Positions 3,996 through 38,103 of a DNA stretch of 64,000 bases are shown here, piece after piece. The DNA lies in the NCBI GenBank assembly GCA_000092065.1, contig CP000583.1; one strand, given 5' to 3'. The DNA comes from Ostreococcus lucimarinus. Taxonomy: Eukaryota. The translations under genes and the position numbers were made by a program. The notes beneath the pieces are model-generated. The model was not told where the DNA came from and did no database searches. It saw only the letters and a program-made list of their open reading frames with translations. The first letter of the stretch is position 1. Each line of letters opens with the position of its first letter.

Positions 3996-6900
3996 TTAAT
4001 TTTGCGATTGCGTGCTCATGAACAGCGCTGGATCGATCGCTAAGGGAGCGTCTGATTGGCTGTGATCAGTGAACGTGCGAACAAGCTGGGAACCAGGACG
4101 CGGAGAGAGCGTAGACGCAGTCTCGGCGGGGTCGTTGCTCGGCAAGAGGGCGGCGCGAGGCGTGGCGCCGGATTTGCGAGTCGTGCGCTGCTTCATGGAG
4201 TCCGAAGCTCGCTCGGTGACAACGTTCACGCGCATATTCGGCGGTTTGGGCAAGCTCGTTGACTTTGACCCGCTCGTTCGCGGTGAGCGATGAGGTGAAA
4301 CGCGGTTTCTGTCGAAACTGTTGCGCGGAGAGACGTGAGGAGAGATGTTTGGCGACTCGGGATCGCTAACGGCGGCAAACGCCGATGCGGCCATTTGGAG
4401 TTCAGCGTGAGGTTTGTTGACGTCGACGTCTGAAATTCGCCGTTCCTCCTTCGCTTTGTGCTTCCAGTTCGTGATGGCGGTGTTCGTGTACGCTTGTGCC
4501 TTTCGCACCGCAGCGTCCATCTGAGACAACGTCAAGCCGTGAGCCATCCACGAAGACACGCCTGGAGGTCGGAGGTGCATGTTGATTCGATGGTCTCGCG
4601 CGACGAGCTCGAGGTGCTTCTTCGTCGTCGTCGCCGTCAATGCGTTCAGAACGTCCGCGTACGATGGGTGATCCAGTCGTTCTGAGGCACTCTTTGACTT
4701 GCGCGAGTCAAACGGGTTCAATCGATCCCACAGCAAGCCGAAACTGCTCATGCCTCCATCGTGCGGCGTGAGATCGCGGAAGCTAATGAAATCTTTGTCT
4801 TCTACGTCCACAACGATCACAGTCTCGACTCCCATCTCTTTTCGCATCACGTCTACGGGAACGCTGTTCAGGTAGCCCCCGTCAACGAGTAACTCACCAT
4901 TCTCGTCGCGAACCGGAGGCAAGAGCCCGAGAACCGTCATCGACGCTCGAATACACCGCCAAAGACGTCCAGAAGTGTGCACATTCAAACACTGTTTGTT
5001 TAAATTTGTGCTACAGCAGAAAAAGTTCAGCCACAGATCTTCGATGGAGGTATCAGCGCCCACGGAACTCTTGATGATGGTGTCCAAGCCCTTGCCGCTA
5101 AAGAGCGAAAGCAGCGGGAGTGTGAGATCGGTGAGCAAATGATGAGGAGAGTTCAGAACGTGCATGTTGTTGCGAAGCATTGGGAGTATGTGCGATGTTG
5201 ATAATGTCCTAGCATACATCCCTGCTGTGAGCGTGCCTTGACTGGTGCCACCGATACAATCGATTGGAATTCCATTCTCCTCGAGCGCACGTAACGCGCC
5301 CAAATGAGCCAAACCACCGCCGCCTCCGCCGGTCAAGATCACGCCAACGCTATGTCCGGACACATACCTCGCGAGGCGTGACATGTCATCCCTCGACGCT
5401 AGTCTCACGTGATGATGGCGTTTGATTGTAGTTCTGTTTTCCTGCCAAGTCTTTGTTTGCGACGGCGTGCTTCCAGGCTCGTGAATTAGTACCAGTTCTG
5501 GACGTGCGCTGTTTCGTGTGCGCCAAAGTAGTCGTTGCTCGTACAGAAGCGGCATCTTATTCTCATGATTGCCGTGTGCCACGACTAATACACAATCCGC
5601 TTGGCTCGCACAAACTTTACTCCAACTTGATGCACGCGGATCCGCTTGGAGGACGATGAAACGATGCACTTCCTCTTGTTCTGCCATCCATCCAGTGAGC
5701 TTTGAACGGTAAAACAGGTTGTCTAGGCGATGAGTCGTTTCGTCAGCGAAAATTTCATCGATAACTGAACTCGTTAGCAGCAGTGTGGATCCAAACATGG
5801 AAAGCGCACTTTGAAGAGCGCTTGCAAACTCGTTGATTTGTGTGCGTGGGCCCGCAGGTATGAGGCAGATCGTCACGAGCTCAGCGAGCGAACGGTCGCC
5901 AGTTCGAAGGTTATTCTGCAGTTTGCAAGCGACGAGTTCAAGAAGTCGACTCGATACCTCAGAGTGATGCGCGTTGATCAGTTTCAGCGCTCCGTGCGAC
6001 ATTCTGACGAGTTCTGTATCGCGTGAAGTGACTGCAGTTGAGGAATACTTCCCATGCGCGAGTAAAGGCGCTTCTCCGATGGTATCGCCTCGACCGCGTT
6101 CCCGAATTATTTCATCTCCACTACTCGTGTGACGTGGAAACCGTAAACGCACGCGTCCACTGATGATGACAAACATACTTGTGGCATCTTCATTGGTCAT
6201 AAAGACGTGATCTCCGCTTCTCAGCCACACTCGATTGAGACCGAAGCCGATGAAATTACGAATGAGAACGCCAAGAGACGAAGACGTTTGACGGAGCAAA
6301 GAGATGTATGCCTCAGTTTCAGCTGTACACAAATGCTCGAGAACTTCTCCTGTTATGACGAGCATTTCACAATCTTCATCCGCCTGTTGGGTTTCTCTGA
6401 AGAGTGAGCGTGTCATAAAGTGCGCCGAACCGATCAACTGTAACGCTCGCACCGGCTTCCCACGCAGCCCGTCGCCTTTCGGCCATGGAATGGCTTCCCG
6501 CGCAATCGATCCCTTCAGAAGGATGTAAAACGCATCCGTAGAATCTCCTTCGGCAAAAATAATCTCACCCTTTTTTATTTGTTTGCGTGCGCAATACTTC
6601 TCCACGGTCGGTAAGTGCTCCAAGAAATCTGAATTTGCGAGCGAGCATGCGTCGTCCGCCTCAGGTTGACCGCGAAGCGATTGCCGAGGCATGCCAAGAA
6701 AATCAATCAGCGAAAACTGCGCCACGCGCCACAATCGCGCGATCGCTTGTTGCAAATACAGCTGCAAAGTGTGCGGATGCTTTCGAACGAAGTCTAAGAA
6801 GATGCGCTGTGAGACTCGCACTACCTTTGCCCCGCCCTGCATGGTGATGCAACTCACGCTTCGTCTCGCGCTGTCGAGGATGTCTATATCTCCCACCGAC

Positions 6901-7348
6901 TCTCCCTCTTGTAAAATATTCGTCATCACAGGTGGCGCTCCATTCGTCGGTTGCAAATACACTCCCACCGATCCCTCGACGACGACGTATATCCCACTCG
7001 AACTATCGTCTCCTTGCCGAAAAAGCACTTCATTCGGCGCCAACACCTCCTCCTCCGACGCCTCAAACAGCTCTCTCGACAACTCCAACTCTAACACGCT
7101 AAAAAACTTCGTACTCGCGAAAAAATTAGGCGTGTTCTCATCGTTCACGTCTTCTCCACTCGCGCTCGCGAAAAACTGTCCCGACGTCCGCGACCCCTCC
7201 AGGTCGCCCTCGTCGCTCCAAAATTCATCCTCTCGACTCGTCGAGCTGCTCATCCCGCGCTGACTCTCGCGCGATCCGAACGACCCAACGCGCAGGACTT
7301 CCGCGCTGTCTCCACCGTCCACGCGCACGCCTCGTCGATTGCGTCCTC

Positions 7349-19278: not shown

Positions 19279-20601
19279 ATGCCGTCGCCACCGCGCGTGA
19301 TCGTGATCGTTGGTCCCACGGGGTCGGGAAAGTCCCGATTGGCCGTAGAACTTGCCCGCGCGCTCGGGGGAGACGTCATCAATGCGGACGCGTTGCAATT
19401 TCACGACTCGCTGCCAATCTGTACGGCGCGCGTTCGAGAAGATGAAATGGAAGGCGTGCGACATCATCTAGTTGGGTGCGTGAAATACGGTGAATACTTC
19501 GATGTGCGCGCGTTTCGAGCGCGCGCGGGATCGATCGTGCGCGAGTGCGTGGGTGAAGGGAGGTCGGTAATTGTGGTGGGCGGGAGCAACTACTACGCTC
19601 AAGCGCTCGTGTCCGACTCGCTGATGGATGTCAGAGATAGAGAAGAAGAAGAATGTATCAGTGATAAGAGTTTTATCGATGACATAGGACCGAATGGTGG
19701 ACGCCGAACGGCTGCCGAAGATGGAACGGTTGGCGTTGACGCGTCGACGGCGTACGCTCGGCTCGCCGAGGTTGATCCTGAGAGCGCTCAGAGACTTCAC
19801 CCGAACGATATCCGACGTGTTCGCCGGTATTTGGAAATCTTTGATACCACTGGTGAACGTCCGAGCGATGTATTCAAGCGAGAGCGCACTATGAAGAAGT
19901 TTGTGAGCCAATTTGACGTACTCGGTTGCCGGACCATCTTCATCGCGTTGAAATGTGACTCGAAAGTTCTTGACGAGATTCTTCGAGCGAGAGTCCTGTC
20001 CATGGTTGAAAACGGGTTGGTCGATGAACTGGAGCAGTTTGCGCGCTGTCATGGCGTTGAATCTCCGGACGGTGCTCGGGGAGACGTCCGTCAGGCGATC
20101 GGTTACGCGGAGTGGATGCCATACTTGCAAGCCAAAGTTAAAATGGACTCGACGCCTTGTGTCGACAGCGAACTCGCATCAATGCGTGATGAAGCCATCG
20201 AGGCGACTGTACGGCACACTTGTCGTCTATCACGACGTCAACAGTCACGTTTGACGACCTTTGCGAAGCAATACGGTTGGCCCGTGAGATTCGTCGATGT
20301 ATCGGATTCGTTGAGTAAGTTCTGTTCGGAGCGCGCCGCCTTCAAAGATAGCTGGTACGCGAATGTCGTTCATCGTGCCCTAGAACTGTGCGAACATGAA
20401 GACGTCGTCGAATTAGACTCAGGAAACAGCTCAAAACAGGTCGCTGTGCACACGTGCGAGGCGTGTGGGAAAACGTTGCGAGGCGAAATCGAGTGGCGAG
20501 CCCACCTGAATGGCAGGCGCCACCGAAAGGCTTCTGCCAATGCGAGGAAACGCCAGAGACTTGAGTTTGGGACAAAACATCCAAGGTTAGGTAGACAATA
20601 G
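19279..20601 (+). CDS. MOD5: tRNA dimethylallyl (isopentenyl) transferase, eukaryotic MOD5/TRIT1 type with C-terminal matrin-type zinc finger
   Basis: P-loop VIVIVGPTGSGKSRLAVELA..INADALQFH and C-terminal CEACGKTLRGEIEWRAHLNGRRHRK zinc finger. Confidence 0.9.
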   Translation: MPSPPRVIVIVGPTGSGKSRLAVELARALGGDVINADALQFHDSLPICTARVREDEMEGVRHHLVGCVKYGEYFDVRAFRARAGSIVRECVGEGRSVIVVGGSNYYAQALVSDSLMDVRDREEEECISDKSFIDDIGPNGGRRTAAEDGTVGVDASTAYARLAEVDPESAQRLHPNDIRRVRRYLEIFDTTGERPSDVFKRERTMKKFVSQFDVLGCRTIFIALKCDSKVLDEILRARVLSMVENGLVDELEQFARCHGVESPDGARGDVRQAIGYAEWMPYLQAKVKMDSTPCVDSELASMRDEAIEATVRHTCRLSRRQQSRLTTFAKQYGWPVRFVDVSDSLSKFCSERAAFKDSWYANVVHRALELCEHEDVVELDSGNSSKQVAVHTCEACGKTLRGEIEWRAHLNGRRHRKASANARKRQRLEFGTKHPRLGRQ

Positions 20602-20673: not shown

Positions 20674-21501
20674 TCACGTTCCTGGAAGCTTAGGCACGAG
20701 CACCGGAGTCTTCCTTTTGTACGACTGATACCCCTCGTCCTTGCCCCATCTCTCATCGGCCATTCGTTCCAAAATTGGAATACCGCTCATCTTTGTCAGC
20801 AAGTAGGTGACGAAGAGTGGCGACGCAAACGCTCCGGCCGCTCGACCCGGATTCGACGCCGCCAAACCGTTGCAAGCGATTCCCGCGACCCCGAACCACA
20901 TGCAAATCTCGCCGAAGTAGTTCGGATGACGAGACAGGGACCACAAACCGTGCTTGATGTACTTGCCTTTGTTCGACTTGTCCGACTTGAAGGCAAACTT
21001 TTGTACGTCGGCGACGACTTCGAAGACGAACCCAAAGGCCCAAAACGCCGCCAGCGTCCAATCCACCGCGTTCAGATCCACCAATTGACCCGGAGACCCG
21101 TTCAACAGATACACCGGTAACGACGTCACCCACACCCACACGCCTTGGAGGAACCAATACACCGCGAACACCCCGGGCTTGTCCTTCACGCCGTCGAATC
21201 GCGAGTCCCCGCCGTCCCTGTGCGCCCTCGCGCCCAAGAATATCCCCAATCTCGCCGTCCACGCCATCGCGAGCGCGCTCGCGAGCTTCTGCCGCGGCAT
21301 CATCGCCGACGTCCCCAGCGTCAGCGCCGCCGTCGTCGCGAACGCCGCGCTCCCCAGAATGTCGTAAAACTTCTCCGTCCGCAGCGTCGCCGCCGCCGCC
21401 CAACCGACGAGCTGGATCCCAAAGTCCACGAGCGCCGCGCCGAGCATGCTCGACTGCATCGCGCCGCCGCCCATCCACGACAGCGCGTCCGCGCGCGTCA
21501 T
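20674..21501 (-). CDS. DUF1295 / steroid 5-alpha-reductase-like polytopic membrane protein
   Basis: Multiple TM helices and C-terminal KHGLWSLSRHPNYFGE motif typical of the DUF1295/ICMT-like fold; start MTRADALSWMGG at ~21501. Confidence 0.6.
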   Translation of the reverse strand: MTRADALSWMGGGAMQSSMLGAALVDFGIQLVGWAAAATLRTEKFYDILGSAAFATTAALTLGTSAMMPRQKLASALAMAWTARLGIFLGARAHRDGGDSRFDGVKDKPGVFAVYWFLQGVWVWVTSLPVYLLNGSPGQLVDLNAVDWTLAAFWAFGFVFEVVADVQKFAFKSDKSNKGKYIKHGLWSLSRHPNYFGEICMWFGVAGIACNGLAASNPGRAAGAFASPLFVTYLLTKMSGIPILERMADERWGKDEGYQSYKRKTPVLVPKLPGT

Positions 21502-21750
21502 CGCACGCGAGGGCGCGCGCGCGCGCGCGCCGAGCGACGTTCCCGCGCGCGTCGAACGCGCGCCCTCGCCCTCGCGTCCCGCGCGCCCTCGCGCCGCGCG
21601 CGCGCCGCGCTCGGGCGCGCGCGCGCGTCGACGCGCGCGCCAGGCGACGTCGCGCCGCGCGCCGTCGCCGAACCGCGAGAGCGCGCTCGCTCGACCGCCG
21701 AAGGGCGACATGTGCGGCGGGGCGTCATCCGCATTCGTCGACGCGACGCC

Positions 21751-23445
21751 ATGTCGACGGCGACGCCGGCGCGCGCGGTCGCGCGCGCGCCGCCGCGATG
21801 GACCGGTAGGAGCGCGCGCGCGCGCGCGCGGGCGGTGACGCGCGCGGCGGAGGAGGACGACGCGCGAAGCGCGCGAGTGGTGGACTTGTTCGAAGCCGCG
21901 GCGACGCCCATGGGCGCGGCGGCGCGCGCGGAGGCGGCGATGGCGGCGGTGCGAGCGATGACGAGCGTGCGAGAGACGGCGACGTCGAAGACCGAGGCGG
22001 TGACGACGGGAGGAGGGGAAGGGGCGACGAGCGGGAGCGCGAGCGGGAGCGCGCCGAGGTCAACCGGGACGACGACCGGGGCGTCGGGCGCGGCTGACGG
22101 CGCGGTGATGAAGGGAGGGAGGTCCGCGAACGATTCAGGGTTGAAAAACACCGCGAAGAAGGCGTCGAAGCCGAAGGCGGAGACTTTCAACCCCGGGAGC
22201 GACTTTTGGACGTGGACGCCGCCGGAGGCGGCGGGTTCGGATAAAGTCGCCGCCGCCGCGGCGCCAAAGTTGCAGAGACAGACAGAGACTCGCGTGAGCG
22301 CGGCCGTGGCGGTCGCGGAGCGCGCGCCCGAGGCTTCGCTTCAGTTGAAGTTTCAAAGCGACGTCGAGACGCCGAGCGAGTTGAAGCTTGAATTCGAAAG
22401 CGACGTCGTTTTGGCGAAGGAACCGGCGCCGCTGAGCGACACGCCGACGGTGGAGCTAGAGGAAACTGCGACCGCCGTGCGCGAGCTCGGCGCAGATGGG
22501 GAAACCGAAGGTACACTTGAAAATGGTTCGAGGTGGTGGCGCGAGTCAGGCGAAGAGGAACTCGAAGGCGGGAAGCTGTGTCGATGGACGCTCGTCCGAG
22601 GCGCCTCCGCGGACGGTTCCGTCGAGTGGGAAGAAAAATGGTGGGAGACGAGCGATGCTTTCAACTATCGGGAACTCGGGGCGATCAAATCGGGGAGAGA
22701 CGCCAAGGGCAACGTGTGGCAAGAAAGCTGGCGTGAGCAAGTGACTCACGACACCACCACCGGTTTCTCAAACGCCTCGAAGCACATCATGAGAGAGGCG
22801 AACAAGTGGGGTGCGCAAGCCGACGGCGCCGAATGGCACGAAGTGTGGGACGAGAACTACTGGGGCGACGGTCAAGTGAAGCGTACATGTACAAAAAAAG
22901 GTGCGATCGCGAACGGCGCGACTCCAGACGACGGTCACGGTAATCGTTGGACGCACAAGTGGGGCGAGGAGTGGGACGGTCACGGTGGGTGCGTCAAGTG
23001 GACGGATTCCTTCGCCGACCGCGATCAGAGCGAGGACGGTGGAAGCGGACGTGCCTGGGGTGAAAAGTGGGAAGAACGATGGGGGGGATACGCTCACAAC
23101 GGGAGTGCGGGGAATCGCAACGGGAGCACATGGGACGATCGCGACGGGCACAAATTTGAGAAGACGTGGGGCGAGGAGCACTGGCACGACGGTCGCGTCC
23201 ACAAATGGGGCGCCACCACCGATGGTTCCGACGGTTGGGACACCTGGGAAGACAGTGCCGGTTGGTGGGAGCGCGCACCGAGCTTCGGATGGGACGAAGC
23301 CGTCTCGCACTCACCGCAACTCCTCAACGTCCCGCTTCGTCCGCGAGGCACCGGAGTCGAACCCGGAAAGAAAAAGTCCATCGGTCGAGCTCCCGGTCGA
23401 ACGATCAAGCCACCGCCGGGGTCGCGTCTTCACAATCCAGATTAG
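21751..23445 (+). CDS. Trp-rich repeat protein, candidate ESV1/LESV-like starch-granule-associated protein, with Ala/Arg-rich transit peptide
   Basis: C-terminal 250 aa consist of repeated acidic-Trp motifs (EEKWWE, HKWGEEWDG, RAWGEKWEERWGG, KTWGEEHWHDG, HKWGATTDG, DTWEDSAGWWE); N-terminus MSTATPARAVARAPP; ORF-track 5' part (21145-21750) is antisense to the DUF1295 gene. Confidence 0.45.
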   Translation: MSTATPARAVARAPPRWTGRSARARARAVTRAAEEDDARSARVVDLFEAAATPMGAAARAEAAMAAVRAMTSVRETATSKTEAVTTGGGEGATSGSASGSAPRSTGTTTGASGAADGAVMKGGRSANDSGLKNTAKKASKPKAETFNPGSDFWTWTPPEAAGSDKVAAAAAPKLQRQTETRVSAAVAVAERAPEASLQLKFQSDVETPSELKLEFESDVVLAKEPAPLSDTPTVELEETATAVRELGADGETEGTLENGSRWWRESGEEELEGGKLCRWTLVRGASADGSVEWEEKWWETSDAFNYRELGAIKSGRDAKGNVWQESWREQVTHDTTTGFSNASKHIMREANKWGAQADGAEWHEVWDENYWGDGQVKRTCTKKGAIANGATPDDGHGNRWTHKWGEEWDGHGGCVKWTDSFADRDQSEDGGSGRAWGEKWEERWGGYAHNGSAGNRNGSTWDDRDGHKFEKTWGEEHWHDGRVHKWGATTDGSDGWDTWEDSAGWWERAPSFGWDEAVSHSPQLLNVPLRPRGTGVEPGKKKSIGRAPGRTIKPPPGSRLHNPD

Positions 23446-23615
23446 TAAACGTATTATTTCGTTATTCCCGTGACGTCGATTACACGCAGCTTTCGATCGA
23501 GTACATGCTCGTGCGTGACTAGCCTCGCCGTAGGTCTCGTAGCAGGTTAACCAGAGACGCGACTCAGACCCATCCCACTCGTCGACGCCTCGCGCTCGCC
23601 GACGCGCTCCTCACG

Positions 23616-25649
23616 ATGCGCGTCGCGTCTGTCGCGTCGCGCGCCGTCGTCTCGCGCGCCTCGCCGCCGTCTCGCGCGTCCTCGCGCGCGCAATCGTCAC
23701 CGCCGTCGACGACCACGCCCGGCGGCGGCTCGCGGCGAATCGTCACCGCGCGCGCGAAGAAATCTTCGCGCGCGGGCGCGGGCGACGCCAAGTACGCGGT
23801 GAAAACGACGGAAGACGCGCTCAAGTACGACCCCACGAAGTCTCTCGCGGACGTCCTCGCGTCCAAGGACGACGCGGACGAAGCGAATGGGAATTCGAGC
23901 AACGACTGGGCGAGCTCGCTCGCGGCGTTTCGAGAAGAAAAGGCGACGAAGGATCGCACGCGAGCGGAGATGGGAGCGGAGATGGCGGACATGGAAAGGA
24001 AATCGAACGAAAGCGATGATTTGATGGACACGACGTGGGTGACGGAGGCTGGGACGGTCGCGAGACGAGAGTTTAGGGGATTGAACGCGGGAGAGGAGGA
24101 GGCGACGTTCGGAGACGACGAAGCCGAATTCGTGGCGTTTGGGACGAATGAGGACGACGGCGAGGAAGTTTGGGGACCCGGTGATGAAGGGTTTGAAGTG
24201 TACATGTACGATGACGATGATGACGAGGGGGAGGGTGAAGTCACTCAGGAACGGGGTCGGGGAATACCGCGGGAGATGCGGTGCTTTGACACGGCGAAAA
24301 TTTACGTAAAGGCTGGCGACGGCGGTGATGGTCAGGTTGCGTTCAGGCGAGAAAAGTTCGTGCCGCAAGGTGGACCATCGGGGGGTAACGGTGGGATCGG
24401 CGGCGCGGTGTATATTGTCGCCGATAAGAACATGAATTCTTTAGATGGATTTAGAAAAAAAGTGCACCATCGGGCCGAGGCGGGCAAACGGGGGCTCGGA
24501 TCGAAGTGTGCCGGCCGTAACGGTCGCGATTTGGAGATCTTGGTGCCACCCGGAACTATCATTCGCGACAGTCGGAGCAAAACAATCATCGCAGAGATCA
24601 CGAAGGCTGAACAGCGAGTGATGGTGCTCGCGGGCGGTCGAGGCGGTCGAGGGAACGCGTCCTTCAAGACGGCGAAGAATAAGGCTCCGATGATTGCGGA
24701 GTTGGGCGAAAAAGGACGTGAGTTCTGGGCTGAGATGGAACTCAAACTCGTCGCCGATGTGGGAATAATTGGCATACCCAACGCTGGGAAATCAACCTTA
24801 CTCGCGAGCGTGAGCGCGGCGAAACCAAAGATTGCCGACTACCCGTTTACGACCATCGTGCCAAATTTGGGCGTCGTAGAGCGCGACTACGAGCGCATGG
24901 TGTTTGCAGACATCCCGGGTTTGCTCGAAGGGGCGTCGGAAGGGATTGGTTTAGGTTTCGAGTTCCTTCGCCACACAAAGCGAACGCGCGTGCTCATTCA
25001 CGTCATCGACTGCGCGAGCGAGACGTGCTTTGAGGCGTACGACGCGATTCGCACCGAGCTCGAACTCTTCGACGAAGCCTTGCTCGAAAAGCCCGAAATC
25101 GTCGCTTTAAACAAAGTGGACGACATCGAAGCCACGGAGCGAGCGCTGCAAATGAAGGAAAAGTTTGACGCCGAGGGCATCTCTTCGCACTGCGTCTCCG
25201 CCGTCACGGGTGAGGGCGTGGAGGAGCTCCTCGCCGACGTCCAAGCCGCCCTTCGCGCCCTACCTCCGGTCGAAGATGCCTGGGCCGCTGATATCGCGGA
25301 AACGGGCGTGCGCGCCGCGGATGGAAAATCCATCGAAGATTTCACAATCGACGACACCCCGTACGCGTTCGTCGTCGCCGGCGAAGCCATCGAGCGTTTC
25401 ACGCAAATGACAAACTGGGACTATTTCGAGTCCTACAAGCGCTTCGGCCGCGTCCTCGAAATGGCTGGCATCGACGCCGCCCTCAACGCCGCGGGCGCGG
25501 GCGAGGGCGACCGTATCATCATCGGCGACTTCGAGTTCGAGTGGAGCAAGGACCGCCGCGACCGCACCCTGTACGAATCCTTCAGGCAACGCGTCGCCGA
25601 CGCCCCCGGCGGCCAGCGAGGCAGCCGCCACTGGCCCCACGCGTCGTGA
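23616..25649 (+). CDS. OBGC: Obg-family GTPase (plastid ObgC-type with long N-terminal extension)
   Basis: Obg fold glycine-rich motifs GDGGDGQVAFRREKFVPQGGPSGGNGGIGG, G-domain GIIGIPNAGKSTLL, C-terminal OCT/TGS-like domain. Confidence 0.9.
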   Translation: MRVASVASRAVVSRASPPSRASSRAQSSPPSTTTPGGGSRRIVTARAKKSSRAGAGDAKYAVKTTEDALKYDPTKSLADVLASKDDADEANGNSSNDWASSLAAFREEKATKDRTRAEMGAEMADMERKSNESDDLMDTTWVTEAGTVARREFRGLNAGEEEATFGDDEAEFVAFGTNEDDGEEVWGPGDEGFEVYMYDDDDDEGEGEVTQERGRGIPREMRCFDTAKIYVKAGDGGDGQVAFRREKFVPQGGPSGGNGGIGGAVYIVADKNMNSLDGFRKKVHHRAEAGKRGLGSKCAGRNGRDLEILVPPGTIIRDSRSKTIIAEITKAEQRVMVLAGGRGGRGNASFKTAKNKAPMIAELGEKGREFWAEMELKLVADVGIIGIPNAGKSTLLASVSAAKPKIADYPFTTIVPNLGVVERDYERMVFADIPGLLEGASEGIGLGFEFLRHTKRTRVLIHVIDCASETCFEAYDAIRTELELFDEALLEKPEIVALNKVDDIEATERALQMKEKFDAEGISSHCVSAVTGEGVEELLADVQAALRALPPVEDAWAADIAETGVRAADGKSIEDFTIDDTPYAFVVAGEAIERFTQMTNWDYFESYKRFGRVLEMAGIDAALNAAGAGEGDRIIIGDFEFEWSKDRRDRTLYESFRQRVADAPGGQRGSRHWPHAS

Positions 25650-36387: not shown

Positions 36388-38103
36388 TTACAACCCGAGC
36401 TGCACGCGCGACTCGGATGATATTTCGTCGACATCTTCGGTTGACGCCTCTTCATCAGAGGTGTTGCCGATCGAGGTGTCGAGTAAACCGGTTTCGTCGC
36501 GCATGCGCTGAACGAAAATTCTGAACGACTCGAAAGCGAACGGACTGAAAAGCTCGGCGTTGAATCTCAAAAACGTGAAACAGGCCATCGGAGGAAGCAT
36601 TGTGCCCTCTCGCCACATTTCCTCGTCGTTGCCCTCTCCAGCGCAATTTTTGATGATTTTATCATACGCTGCCTGATCGAATCGACAGAGCGCGTTTTCG
36701 CCCGCGAAAGGGACATCGAATCGCGCACACGCTGAGCGAATCTGGCGCAATAAACCCTCGGGTCCGCAATAGCAGTACCACGGATGATCGCTGTCGTGCA
36801 TCTCGACACACGTAAAGTTCAAGCGAGCGCCGTGCTTCTTGCAAACTCTCACGATCGGGGCGTAGCCATCGCGTTCGGAAACAAATTCCCCGGCACGAGT
36901 GTTGAAATATCCAGCGGTAAGCTCTGCGGCGTGTGAACGAACGTTATACCACCAATGCACTCCTGCACATTTAATGGCGAGCGTCACTCCGCGTTTATCA
37001 AAGACTCGCTTCGTCATCTCGAGCATCCGATCGCCGTGGTTAACGAGTTCGCTCGAGTACCAAGACAAGAAGAACGATCCATATTCAGAGTCCCAACTAC
37101 CTCCGTCGTAACGAAAGAAACCGGTCTCAAAGGGTAGGTTGTTGTATCCGCCGGTGTCGTGCGGGCCCGATCCGCCCCACTCAATGTGTCCAGCCTCCGA
37201 CGCCGCGCGAGAGAGAGACAGAAGAGAGCGTTGATCGTAACATTGAAATTCACCAATACCGGGAAATCGCCATTGCGATGCTTTTTGCGCAAATCTGTTC
37301 TCTGGATACGCAGGATACCGCAACTCGCCGCATGGTCCGCAGCCGACGGCGATTTCAGTCAGCGTCGTTCCGAGCTCAGCCTTGAAGGTGTTTCTAAAAC
37401 TAATCATGAAGTCCTTGTACGTATTCATCGGTGTTCGTCCGGCCAACGTCGCGGCGTTGTCGGCCCAAAGCGAAATACACTCCGGATTCCGATAGCCGTA
37501 CTGATCGGTGAAGAACAAGTCTGGGTCCTTCTTCCCCGCTTCGAGCACCCAGTCGGGCAAAGGAATTTCCACGACGTCTCCAACGTTCGCCCCGCACGCG
37601 TGAAACGACATCACCGCCTGTACTTTCAAACCAGCGTCTTTTATCATGTCGATAACTTCTCTATACGCCGCCCAGTCGTACTTTCGCGGACCGTCGCGTT
37701 CGACGATGCCCCACCACACGTCGATCATCACGCCCTCGACTCCAATTTCGCTCAGCGCGCGCAACCCACGCTCGAGCGCCTCGGGATCGTTCACCTCACC
37801 ATCATTCGTCACCACGTTTAAAGGAAGCATCACGTACACCGGCACCGGCTTTCGCACGTACTTTGGCTCGAACGAATCCGCCGCCGCGCGTCCCACCTCC
37901 GCCGCGTCCCTCCCGTCGAACGCGCGCGTCCGCGTCATCGTCTCCCGTCGCCCCACCCCAGATCGTCGCTCGACCCACGCGCGTCGTCCGACTCCGCGCT
38001 CGCGTCGCGCGAGTCCTCCTCGCCGTTCGCGCCGCGCGTCCGCGCGCGTCGCGTTCGAAGACGTCCCCGCCGCGCCCACCATTTCCGCCCCCATCGCCCG
38101 CAT
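36388..38103 (-). CDS. BAM: Beta-amylase (glycoside hydrolase family 14) with N-terminal transit-like extension
   Basis: PVYVMLPLNVV..EIGVEGVMIDVWWGIVE and downstream GH14 blocks; TGTAA 3 nt after stop on the minus strand. Confidence 0.85.
   Translation of the reverse strand: MRAMGAEMVGAAGTSSNATRADARRERRGGLARRERGVGRRAWVERRSGVGRRETMTRTRAFDGRDAAEVGRAAADSFEPKYVRKPVPVYVMLPLNVVTNDGEVNDPEALERGLRALSEIGVEGVMIDVWWGIVERDGPRKYDWAAYREVIDMIKDAGLKVQAVMSFHACGANVGDVVEIPLPDWVLEAGKKDPDLFFTDQYGYRNPECISLWADNAATLAGRTPMNTYKDFMISFRNTFKAELGTTLTEIAVGCGPCGELRYPAYPENRFAQKASQWRFPGIGEFQCYDQRSLLSLSRAASEAGHIEWGGSGPHDTGGYNNLPFETGFFRYDGGSWDSEYGSFFLSWYSSELVNHGDRMLEMTKRVFDKRGVTLAIKCAGVHWWYNVRSHAAELTAGYFNTRAGEFVSERDGYAPIVRVCKKHGARLNFTCVEMHDSDHPWYCYCGPEGLLRQIRSACARFDVPFAGENALCRFDQAAYDKIIKNCAGEGNDEEMWREGTMLPPMACFTFLRFNAELFSPFAFESFRIFVQRMRDETGLLDTSIGNTSDEEASTEDVDEISSESRVQLGL

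Follow-up and report, generated by a model that had tools for sequence, protein, structure and literature searches.

Arabidopsis LESV promotes amylopectin's phase transition (Liu et al. 2023, PMC10219597), and both LESV and its relative ESV1 have been described as 16 antiparallel strands forming an extended twisted sheet, with helices flanking the sheet in LESV only (PMC10219597; bioRxiv 10.1101/2023.06.09.544376). In rice, according to two reports (PMC11062427; PMC12510319), LESV acts with FLO6 and brings isoamylase 1 to the granules. Green-algal homologues have been mentioned (PMC8343138), and no description of a prasinophyte LESV or functional data on one was found in the literature searched, a scope which did not include the first paper on the family (Feike et al. 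2016). The present analysis concerns a stretch of 64,000 nucleotides of Ostreococcus lucimarinus DNA (assembly GCA_000092065.1, contig CP000583.1), referred to below as the window, and in particular the gene at positions 21751-23445, for which an earlier reading of the sequence (the original prediction) had proposed a Trp-rich acidic repeat protein, possibly an ESV1/LESV starch-granule organiser. This gene is very probably the Ostreococcus orthologue of LESV, a nuclear-encoded, plastid-targeted and non-catalytic starch-binding protein, and its product is a new, uncharacterised member of an already known family.

Identification of an ESV1/LESV family member

The gene and the domain on which its assignment is based are the following.

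21751..23445, plus strand: LESV-type coding sequence (CDS), complete and intronless, stop codon included, 564 amino acids (aa); from translation, G+C content at third codon positions (GC3) and metagenome gene calls.
22498..23340, plus strand: residues 250-530, Trp-rich acidic domain, predicted 16-strand antiparallel beta-sheet and putative amylopectin double-helix binding surface; from predicted local distance difference test values (pLDDT), hidden Markov models (HMMs) and Trp columns.

The frame opens with ATG 21751 and ends with the stop codon at 23443-23445, its 564 codons being translated without any in-frame stop, and GC3 over 21751-23445 is 0.75 in frame compared with 0.59-0.63 out of frame. 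A gene call of identical length (564 aa), bearing PF28232:LESV, is also found between DUF1295 and Obg genes on many metagenome contigs. A longer mechanical open reading frame (ORF) from TTG 21145 owes its existence to the high G+C and crosses the adjacent DUF1295 gene in antisense orientation. The initial placement of the gene at 21751-23445 was exact, whereas the location of its Trp-rich part at residues ~500-766 had been counted from TTG 21145 and has to be corrected to about 250-530.

The Arabidopsis sequences used for comparison, LESV (At3g55760; 578 aa) and ESV1 (At1g42430; 426 aa), were rebuilt from the Clustal alignments given as Data S1a/S1b by Liu et al. 2023 (PMC10219597), and their lengths agree with the numbering of these files. 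BLASTP with composition-based statistics aligned the Ostreococcus protein with Arabidopsis LESV (AtLESV) at 35% identity over 405 aa (residues 141-527 against LESV 185-571, 205 bits) and with Arabidopsis ESV1 (AtESV1) at 37% identity over 286 aa (residues 254-538, 162 bits), so that the similarity expected from the original prediction is significant, with both plant proteins, over the whole Trp-rich region. At the 17 columns occupied by Trp in both plant subfamilies, the protein has Trp in 15 and Phe in the other two.

Domain records point the same way. The precomputed domain PF28232 (named 'LESV') is present on all 39 of the 39 homologue clusters found in the protein database, on a 564-aa protein which differs from the present one by 1 residue and has the same gene order, and also on proteins named 'EARLY STARVATION 1, chloroplastic' by NCBI. 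Searching 1.84 billion representative proteins with a profile returned just 484 relatives at E<=1e-3, and the family is therefore small and specific. The protein had no match at E<=1 in Pfam-A, the copy used being one without PF28232, and none in a search of PDB sequences. The word-indexed protein search with the alignment as query returned no land-plant sequences, and the named ESV1 proteins were reached solely via an ESV1-type query.

Assignment to the LESV type

HMMs for each subfamily were made from six published land-plant/charophyte sequences. The Trp-rich domain scored 220 bits with the LESV HMM versus 166 bits with the ESV1 HMM, and all prasinophyte homologues likewise scored higher with the former. 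A neighbour-joining (NJ) tree was computed for 47 domain sequences (260 columns, 300 bootstraps), several taxon labels of metagenome sequences being inferred ones. It is divided at 100% bootstrap into an ESV1-type and a LESV-type side, each with a chlorophyte and a streptophyte subclade, and the protein lies inside the prasinophyte LESV clade at 99%, the streptophyte LESV clade being also supported at 99%. As chlorophytes and streptophytes occur on both sides of the split, the ESV1/LESV duplication predates the divergence of the two groups, and the gene is, as far as a distance-based and unrooted tree can place it, a LESV orthologue stemming from this duplication.

ESV1-type proteins also occur in chlorophytes. 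Cymbomonas has one ESV1-type (KAK3249828.1) and one LESV-type protein (CYMTET_40889), and Micromonas commoda XP_002503244.1 is of the ESV1 type. On three compact, Ostreococcus-like metagenome contigs of 57% GC (L001-L003), a 337-aa ESV1-type gene with a KPPQRDTGIA motif and PF28232 is present at 6001-7014 on the plus strand, flanked by DEAD-box helicase and DNA primase small-subunit genes, a gene for UDP-glucose pyrophosphorylase lying at a distance of two genes. These contigs suggest that proteins of both types, ESV1 and LESV, are present in Ostreococcus.

Further features of the protein are the following.

21751..21849, plus strand: residues 1-33, putative plastid transit peptide, rich in Ala/Arg/Ser/Thr and acid-free; from composition.
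21868..21960, plus strand: residues 40-70, conserved N-terminal helix VVDLFEAAATPMGAAARAEAAMAAVRA, counterpart of the LESV helix (...VVDRAAAAISAARAIL).
22192..22224, plus strand: residues 148-158, PGSDFWTWTPP, a Trp-pair motif specific to LESV, of which the land-plant form is PGPDFWSWTPP.
22336..22404, plus strand: residues 196-218, paired L-x-L-x-FQS / LEFES motifs, counterpart of LESV 'SLSIPYES...PPFESL'; from alignment, BLASTP and hhalign.
22906..22944, plus strand: residues 386-398, loop between strands 9 and 10, IANGATPDDGHGN, of LESV-type length (land-plant LESV: ...TPLDAGHAH...).

The first 33 residues comprise 11 Ala, 8 Arg/Lys, 6 Ser/Thr and no acidic residue, in line with the Ala/Arg-rich, presequence-like N-terminus described at the outset. 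This segment is not conserved across the aligned homologues, pLDDT is below 50 at residues 1-19, and its composition fits a putative plastid presequence.

Over the first 250 residues, Trp amounts to 1.2% and Ala to 22%. When the N-terminal parts of chlorophyte homologues and of streptophyte LESV were compared by hhalign, leaving out the Trp domain, a match at 98.6% probability (E 1e-15, 186 columns) was obtained, extending over residues 32-248 of the protein and 98-303 of AtLESV. In this comparison the helix ERAEAALAAARA was paired with DRAAAAISAARA, and the PGxDFWxWTPP and FQS/PPFQS motifs were paired as well. The helix at residues 40-70 is kept in the aligned chlorophyte homologues, and its hhalign partner is AtLESV residues ~125-145. 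The motif PGSDFWTWTPP was paired with that of AtLESV in both BLASTP and hhalign, its residues F152, W153, W155, P157 and P158 being invariant in a 12-sequence alignment, and PGxDFWxWTPP was found in LESV-type but missing in ESV1-type proteins among those compared. The ESV1 motif RDTPPxRDTGIAxEKDWGI was searched for as a regular expression and is missing from the protein.

The loop between strands 9 and 10 aligned without gap to AtLESV and with a 9-residue gap to AtESV1 in BLASTP, and chlorophyte ESV1-type proteins are likewise short at this place. So are, on the LESV side, the proteins of Volvox and Apatococcus. Four LESV-side proteins, of Volvox (P0125), Apatococcus (P0123), Picocystis (P0142) and Chlorokybus (P0124), retain PPLQS motifs and the long N-terminus, and with the regular expression used FWxWxPP was not matched in any of them. 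As the FWxWxPP motif and the loop length vary on the LESV side, neither is a universal LESV marker.

Compared as a whole, the protein resembles Arabidopsis LESV in its presequence, N-terminal helix, PGxDFWxWTPP and FQS/PPFQS motifs, Trp/acidic domain of ~270 aa, 16 predicted strands and equal strand 9-10 loop length. It is unlike Arabidopsis LESV in that the 'SYLDMWK...' segment of the land-plant N-terminus is missing, LESV-specific Trp is replaced at positions 383, 433, 462 and 482, the C-terminal motif is GW...QLL where LESV has GF...C..NS..L, and an Ostreococcus-specific basic Pro-rich tail follows. With Arabidopsis ESV1 it has in common the Trp-rich PF28232 domain and the shared Trp columns. 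In ESV1, on the other hand, the N-terminus is short and unrelated (RDTPPKRDTGIAxEKDWGI), the loop is shorter by 9 residues, and the tail is poly-Pro. The chlorophyte ESV1-type proteins (Micromonas commoda XP_002503244.1, Cymbomonas KAK3249828.1 and the Ostreococcus-like metagenome protein P0302) belong to the same domain family and algal order, but they are paralogues, being short, carrying a (K/R)PP(E/Q)RDTGIA motif and grouping with plant ESV1.

Several points weigh against a straightforward equation with plant LESV. Kimura distances of the Trp domain are 0.99 to LESV and 1.07 to ESV1, while plant LESV and ESV1 are only 0.84 apart; the diagnostic positions W297, W417, G433 and W514 and the C-terminal GW...QLL motif are ESV1-like; and the NJ tree is distance-based, with no outgroup. 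On account of the ESV1-like positions, functional equivalence to plant LESV is not guaranteed. The protein could act as ESV1, that is, as a stabiliser of already crystalline starch which slows its degradation, instead of a LESV-type promoter of crystallisation. Such a role would agree with the good alignment of the Trp domain to AtESV1 and with some diagnostic residues and the C-terminal 'FGWDEAVSHSPQLLNV', which are closer to ESV1 'YGWADVVGDSTQLLSI' than to LESV 'FGFFHCFDNSVQLRAV'. It is nonetheless unlikely in view of the long LESV N-terminus (helix, FWxWxPP and FQS) in place of RDTPPxRDTGIAxEKDWGI, the loop of LESV length, the lead of the LESV HMM by 54 bits, the tree split of 100% bootstrap, which puts the protein with LESV, and the separate ESV1-type lineage which Mamiellales own (Micromonas commoda XP_002503244.1 and the contigs L001-L003). 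Judged by its sequence, the protein is of the LESV type and not ESV1.

Predicted fold and Trp spacing of the acidic domain

An AlphaFold2 model was built from a 38-sequence alignment. Over residues 250-530, with pLDDT mostly >90, it consists of 16 consecutive antiparallel strands, and helices are predicted at residues 21-50, 53-81 and 233-249 with disordered linkers between them. The long antiparallel sheet anticipated for a family member is thus predicted; strand count, order and confidence are as expected, and the strands and helices agree with the published ESV1/LESV description. Comparison with PDB folds gave no specific match among solved structures, which is consistent with the statement in the Arabidopsis work that no ESV1/LESV crystal structure exists (PMC10219597; bioRxiv 10.1101/2023.06.09.544376). 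The sheet is followed by a further segment:

23341..23442, plus strand: residues 531-564, basic Pro/Gly-rich C-terminal tail (...GKKKSIGRAPGRTIKPPPGSRLHNPD), pLDDT <60.

In the alignment, this tail is conserved solely within Ostreococcus.

Between residues 255 and 520, 28 of 266 residues are Trp (10.5%), Asp and Glu together make up 19.5% and Gly 14.7%. The seven peptides originally quoted for this region (EEKWWETSD, NVWQESWREQ, AEWHEVWDENYWGDG, HKWGEEWDGHGG, RAWGEKWEERWGG, KTWGEEHWHDG and HKWGATTDGSDGWDTWEDSAGWWE) are all present in the translation. The irregular Trp repeats which they were taken to represent hold in one respect only. Pairs of the general form W-x(1-4)-W are not enriched, with 10 observed versus 8.8 +/- 2.2 in composition-preserving shuffles, whereas the specific spacing W-x3-W is (7 versus 2.8 +/- 1.5 in shuffles, P about 0.015); W-x-W was observed 0 times against 2.8 expected. 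The W-x3-W pairs fall on the alternate predicted strands 4, 6, 8, 10 and 12, spaced 30-39 residues. As they occur on every second strand, the repeat unit is a beta-hairpin.

The strong composition bias of the domain, together with a general W-x(1-4)-W frequency which composition alone predicts, would also suit an unrelated protein of the cell surface or wall with Trp-rich and acidic, low-complexity or lectin-like repeats, whose likeness to ESV1/LESV is compositional only. The similarity persists, however, under composition-based statistics; it is tied to particular positions, Trp being kept in 15 of the 17 columns; it continues into the N-terminal region, which is not Trp-rich; and it is accompanied by a confidently predicted fold with the expected number of strands. 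Moreover, no specific match to another family was obtained in Pfam-A, PDB sequences or PDB folds. An unrelated repeat protein is thus highly improbable, and is already effectively refuted by BLASTP, the Trp columns and the N-terminal hhalign. The proposed membership of the ESV1/LESV starch-granule family is accordingly borne out by BLASTP, Trp columns, fold and PF28232, and can be sharpened to LESV.

Proposed function

By analogy with its plant counterparts, the protein would be targeted to the plastid and probably serves there as a non-catalytic template for the crystallisation of amylopectin. Once imported, it would present, on its flat sheet, stripes of Trp and other aromatic residues ~14 A apart, as taken over from Arabidopsis LESV (PMC10219597; bioRxiv 10.1101/2023.06.09.544376). 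The two Trp of a W-x3-W pair in one strand would share one face, at a distance of about 13-14 A, and their recurrence on every second strand would give two such stripes. Amylopectin double helices would dock and align on these stripes, which would promote the transition from soluble to semi-crystalline amylopectin (lamellae), and the protein would remain embedded in the starch granule. Non-catalytic binding of alpha-glucan via aromatic platforms is likewise a property of the CBM20/45/48/53 starch-binding modules. Additional specificity for glucan or for partners, for example recruitment of isoamylase, would probably come from the N-terminal helix and FWxWxPP; a partner-recruiting role for the N-terminal region is suggested by analogy with rice LESV (FLO9), a presumed orthologue.

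Gene neighbourhood and sequence variation

The neighbouring genes considered are listed here.

19279-20598: tRNA isopentenyltransferase (IPPT), 100% identical to O. lucimarinus CCE9901 XP_001416677.1.
20677-21711, minus strand: DUF1295 gene, arranged head-to-head with that of LESV, 39 bp separating the first ATG of the former from the ATG of the latter.
23616-25646, plus strand: Obg-type GTPase with a ~220-residue N-terminal extension, whose Ala/Ser/Arg-rich presequence is like that of the LESV protein.
36391-38103, minus strand: GH14 beta-amylase, 571 aa (Pfam E 7e-111), with about 90 residues preceding the catalytic domain.

The LESV gene is surrounded by housekeeping genes, which encode a fatty-acid desaturase, a cysteine desulfurase-type aminotransferase, a PHD-finger protein, the tRNA isopentenyltransferase, DUF1295, the Obg GTPase, TCP-1/Cpn60, a TYW1-like radical SAM protein and a cyclic-nucleotide phosphodiesterase. 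Many contigs from marine metagenomes show the order IPPT - DUF1295 - LESV - Obg GTPase - Cpn60, with a DNA identity of about 99%. Tblastn over the whole window found no second ESV1/LESV family member besides the gene at 21751-23445. The beta-amylase gene 13 kb away, which had been mentioned with the original prediction, is real, but it carries no weight as evidence, and a starch gene cluster including it is ruled out by the unrelated genes in between.

The Pfam match of the DUF1295 protein begins at residue 104, in-frame Met residues are present at 71, 80, 85 and 89, and the gene call on one contig is 275 aa long; the true start may be further downstream, leaving a longer divergent promoter region. 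The Obg-type GTPase is probably a plastid ObgC homologue.

Among 14 metagenome contigs from different samples (L004-L013 and L020-L023), the LESV CDS is unchanged except for one site, A61, where the window encodes Ser21 and all other contigs Gly, so that the window is the odd one out. Several indels are present among the same contigs in the intergenic region downstream of the CDS. A0A7R9T2J3, a transcriptome-derived UniRef protein labelled Ostreococcus 'lucimarinus', is 99.6% identical to the window protein.

A near-identical copy in Ostreococcus tauri

The closest NCBI proteins are labelled O. tauri, namely CEG02037.1/XP_003082922.2 (named 'HAD-like domain'), of which CEG02037.1 has 4 differences from the window protein, and OUS45893.1. 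Their genes were compared in two assemblies, over 9864-14114 of L014 (RCC4221, CAID01000014.2) and 5864-9968 of L019 (RCC1115, GCA_002158475.1, KZ155785.1), with the following features.

Window 21617..23711, no strand assigned: 2.1-kb stretch recurring nearly unchanged, at a non-syntenic place, in the two O. tauri assemblies; from blastn.
L014 8955-9713, plus strand: HAD hydrolase gene, 253 aa, the next gene upstream of LESV in O. tauri.
L014 11829-13925, plus strand: spacer ORF, 628-698 aa, its product having a single hydrophobic stretch, predicted to be a membrane segment, besides a long poly-Pro/Ser tract.
L019 6001-7712: RCC1115 copy (OUS45893.1), in which 1 bp is deleted at CDS position 1338 and 18 bp are inserted at 1583.

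The name of XP_003082922.2 in NCBI and UniProt raises the question of a HAD-like hydrolase. This reading has the database name alone in its favour, and it has practically no chance of being correct, since neither HAD nor any other Pfam-A family was matched at E<=1, no HAD fold or catalytic motifs were found, and the HAD domain sits in the separate 253-aa O. tauri gene directly upstream of the LESV copy. The name most likely stems from a gene model merged with this adjacent HAD gene.

In both assemblies the LESV copy lies on the ~550-kb contig of chromosome 14, downstream of SSRP1 and the HAD hydrolase gene, and thus not in synteny with the window. By blastn, window positions 21617-23462 are 99.1% identical in RCC4221 and 97.9% in RCC1115, and positions 23473-23711 (239 bp) are 100% identical in O. 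tauri, the two shared pieces being parted there by a spacer of about 2.1 kb. At the syntenic locus, by comparison, three other Ostreococcus lineages have 70-81% DNA identity to the window (about 75%). RCC4221 agrees with the window in all of codons 84-565, and its six differing codons all fall within 21-83. Two changes are common to both O. tauri copies, with further ones in RCC1115. The shared stretch includes the LESV gene and the beginnings of the CDSs on either side, ~95 nt of DUF1295 and 96 nt of Obg; in view of these stubs, it was copied from the syntenic locus.

The deletion and insertion in the RCC1115 copy are either sequencing errors or signs of decay of a redundant copy. The deposited protein OUS45893.1 skips strand 12 (RAWGEKWEERWG -> LGRTMG), presumably via a modelled intron. 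The last residues of the spacer ORF are read from the 239-bp piece common to the window, and this ORF gave no Pfam match and no relatives on viral contigs. Relatives of LESV were not found on viral contigs either, and a virus-mediated route is therefore without support.

Altogether, these observations suggest that the O. tauri copy is either a very recent transfer or an artefact, by contamination or mislabelling in both assemblies. In the former case, a LESV gene of the lucimarinus-type Ostreococcus would have been copied very recently, as a 2.1-kb piece with the stubs of its neighbours, into chromosome 14 of O. tauri, an event to which slightly less than an even chance is given here.

Significance

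The assignment corrects a misleading public annotation ('HAD-like domain', 'hypothetical protein'), which is in itself of modest value. It also means that the smallest free-living green algae keep a LESV-type gene, and that Mamiellales hold both ESV1-type and LESV-type proteins. In O. tauri, a single starch granule is split between the daughter cells, and SS4 is lacking (PMC6210743; bioRxiv 10.1101/2024.10.03.616402). With one dividing granule and no SS4, Ostreococcus could therefore be a minimal test system for protein-templated crystallisation of amylopectin. The O. tauri copy, if confirmed, would matter more than the gene itself, as evidence of recent exchange of DNA between Ostreococcus species; it would represent a rare and datable case in which a gene, here a starch-organising one, passed from one free-living picoeukaryote species to another.

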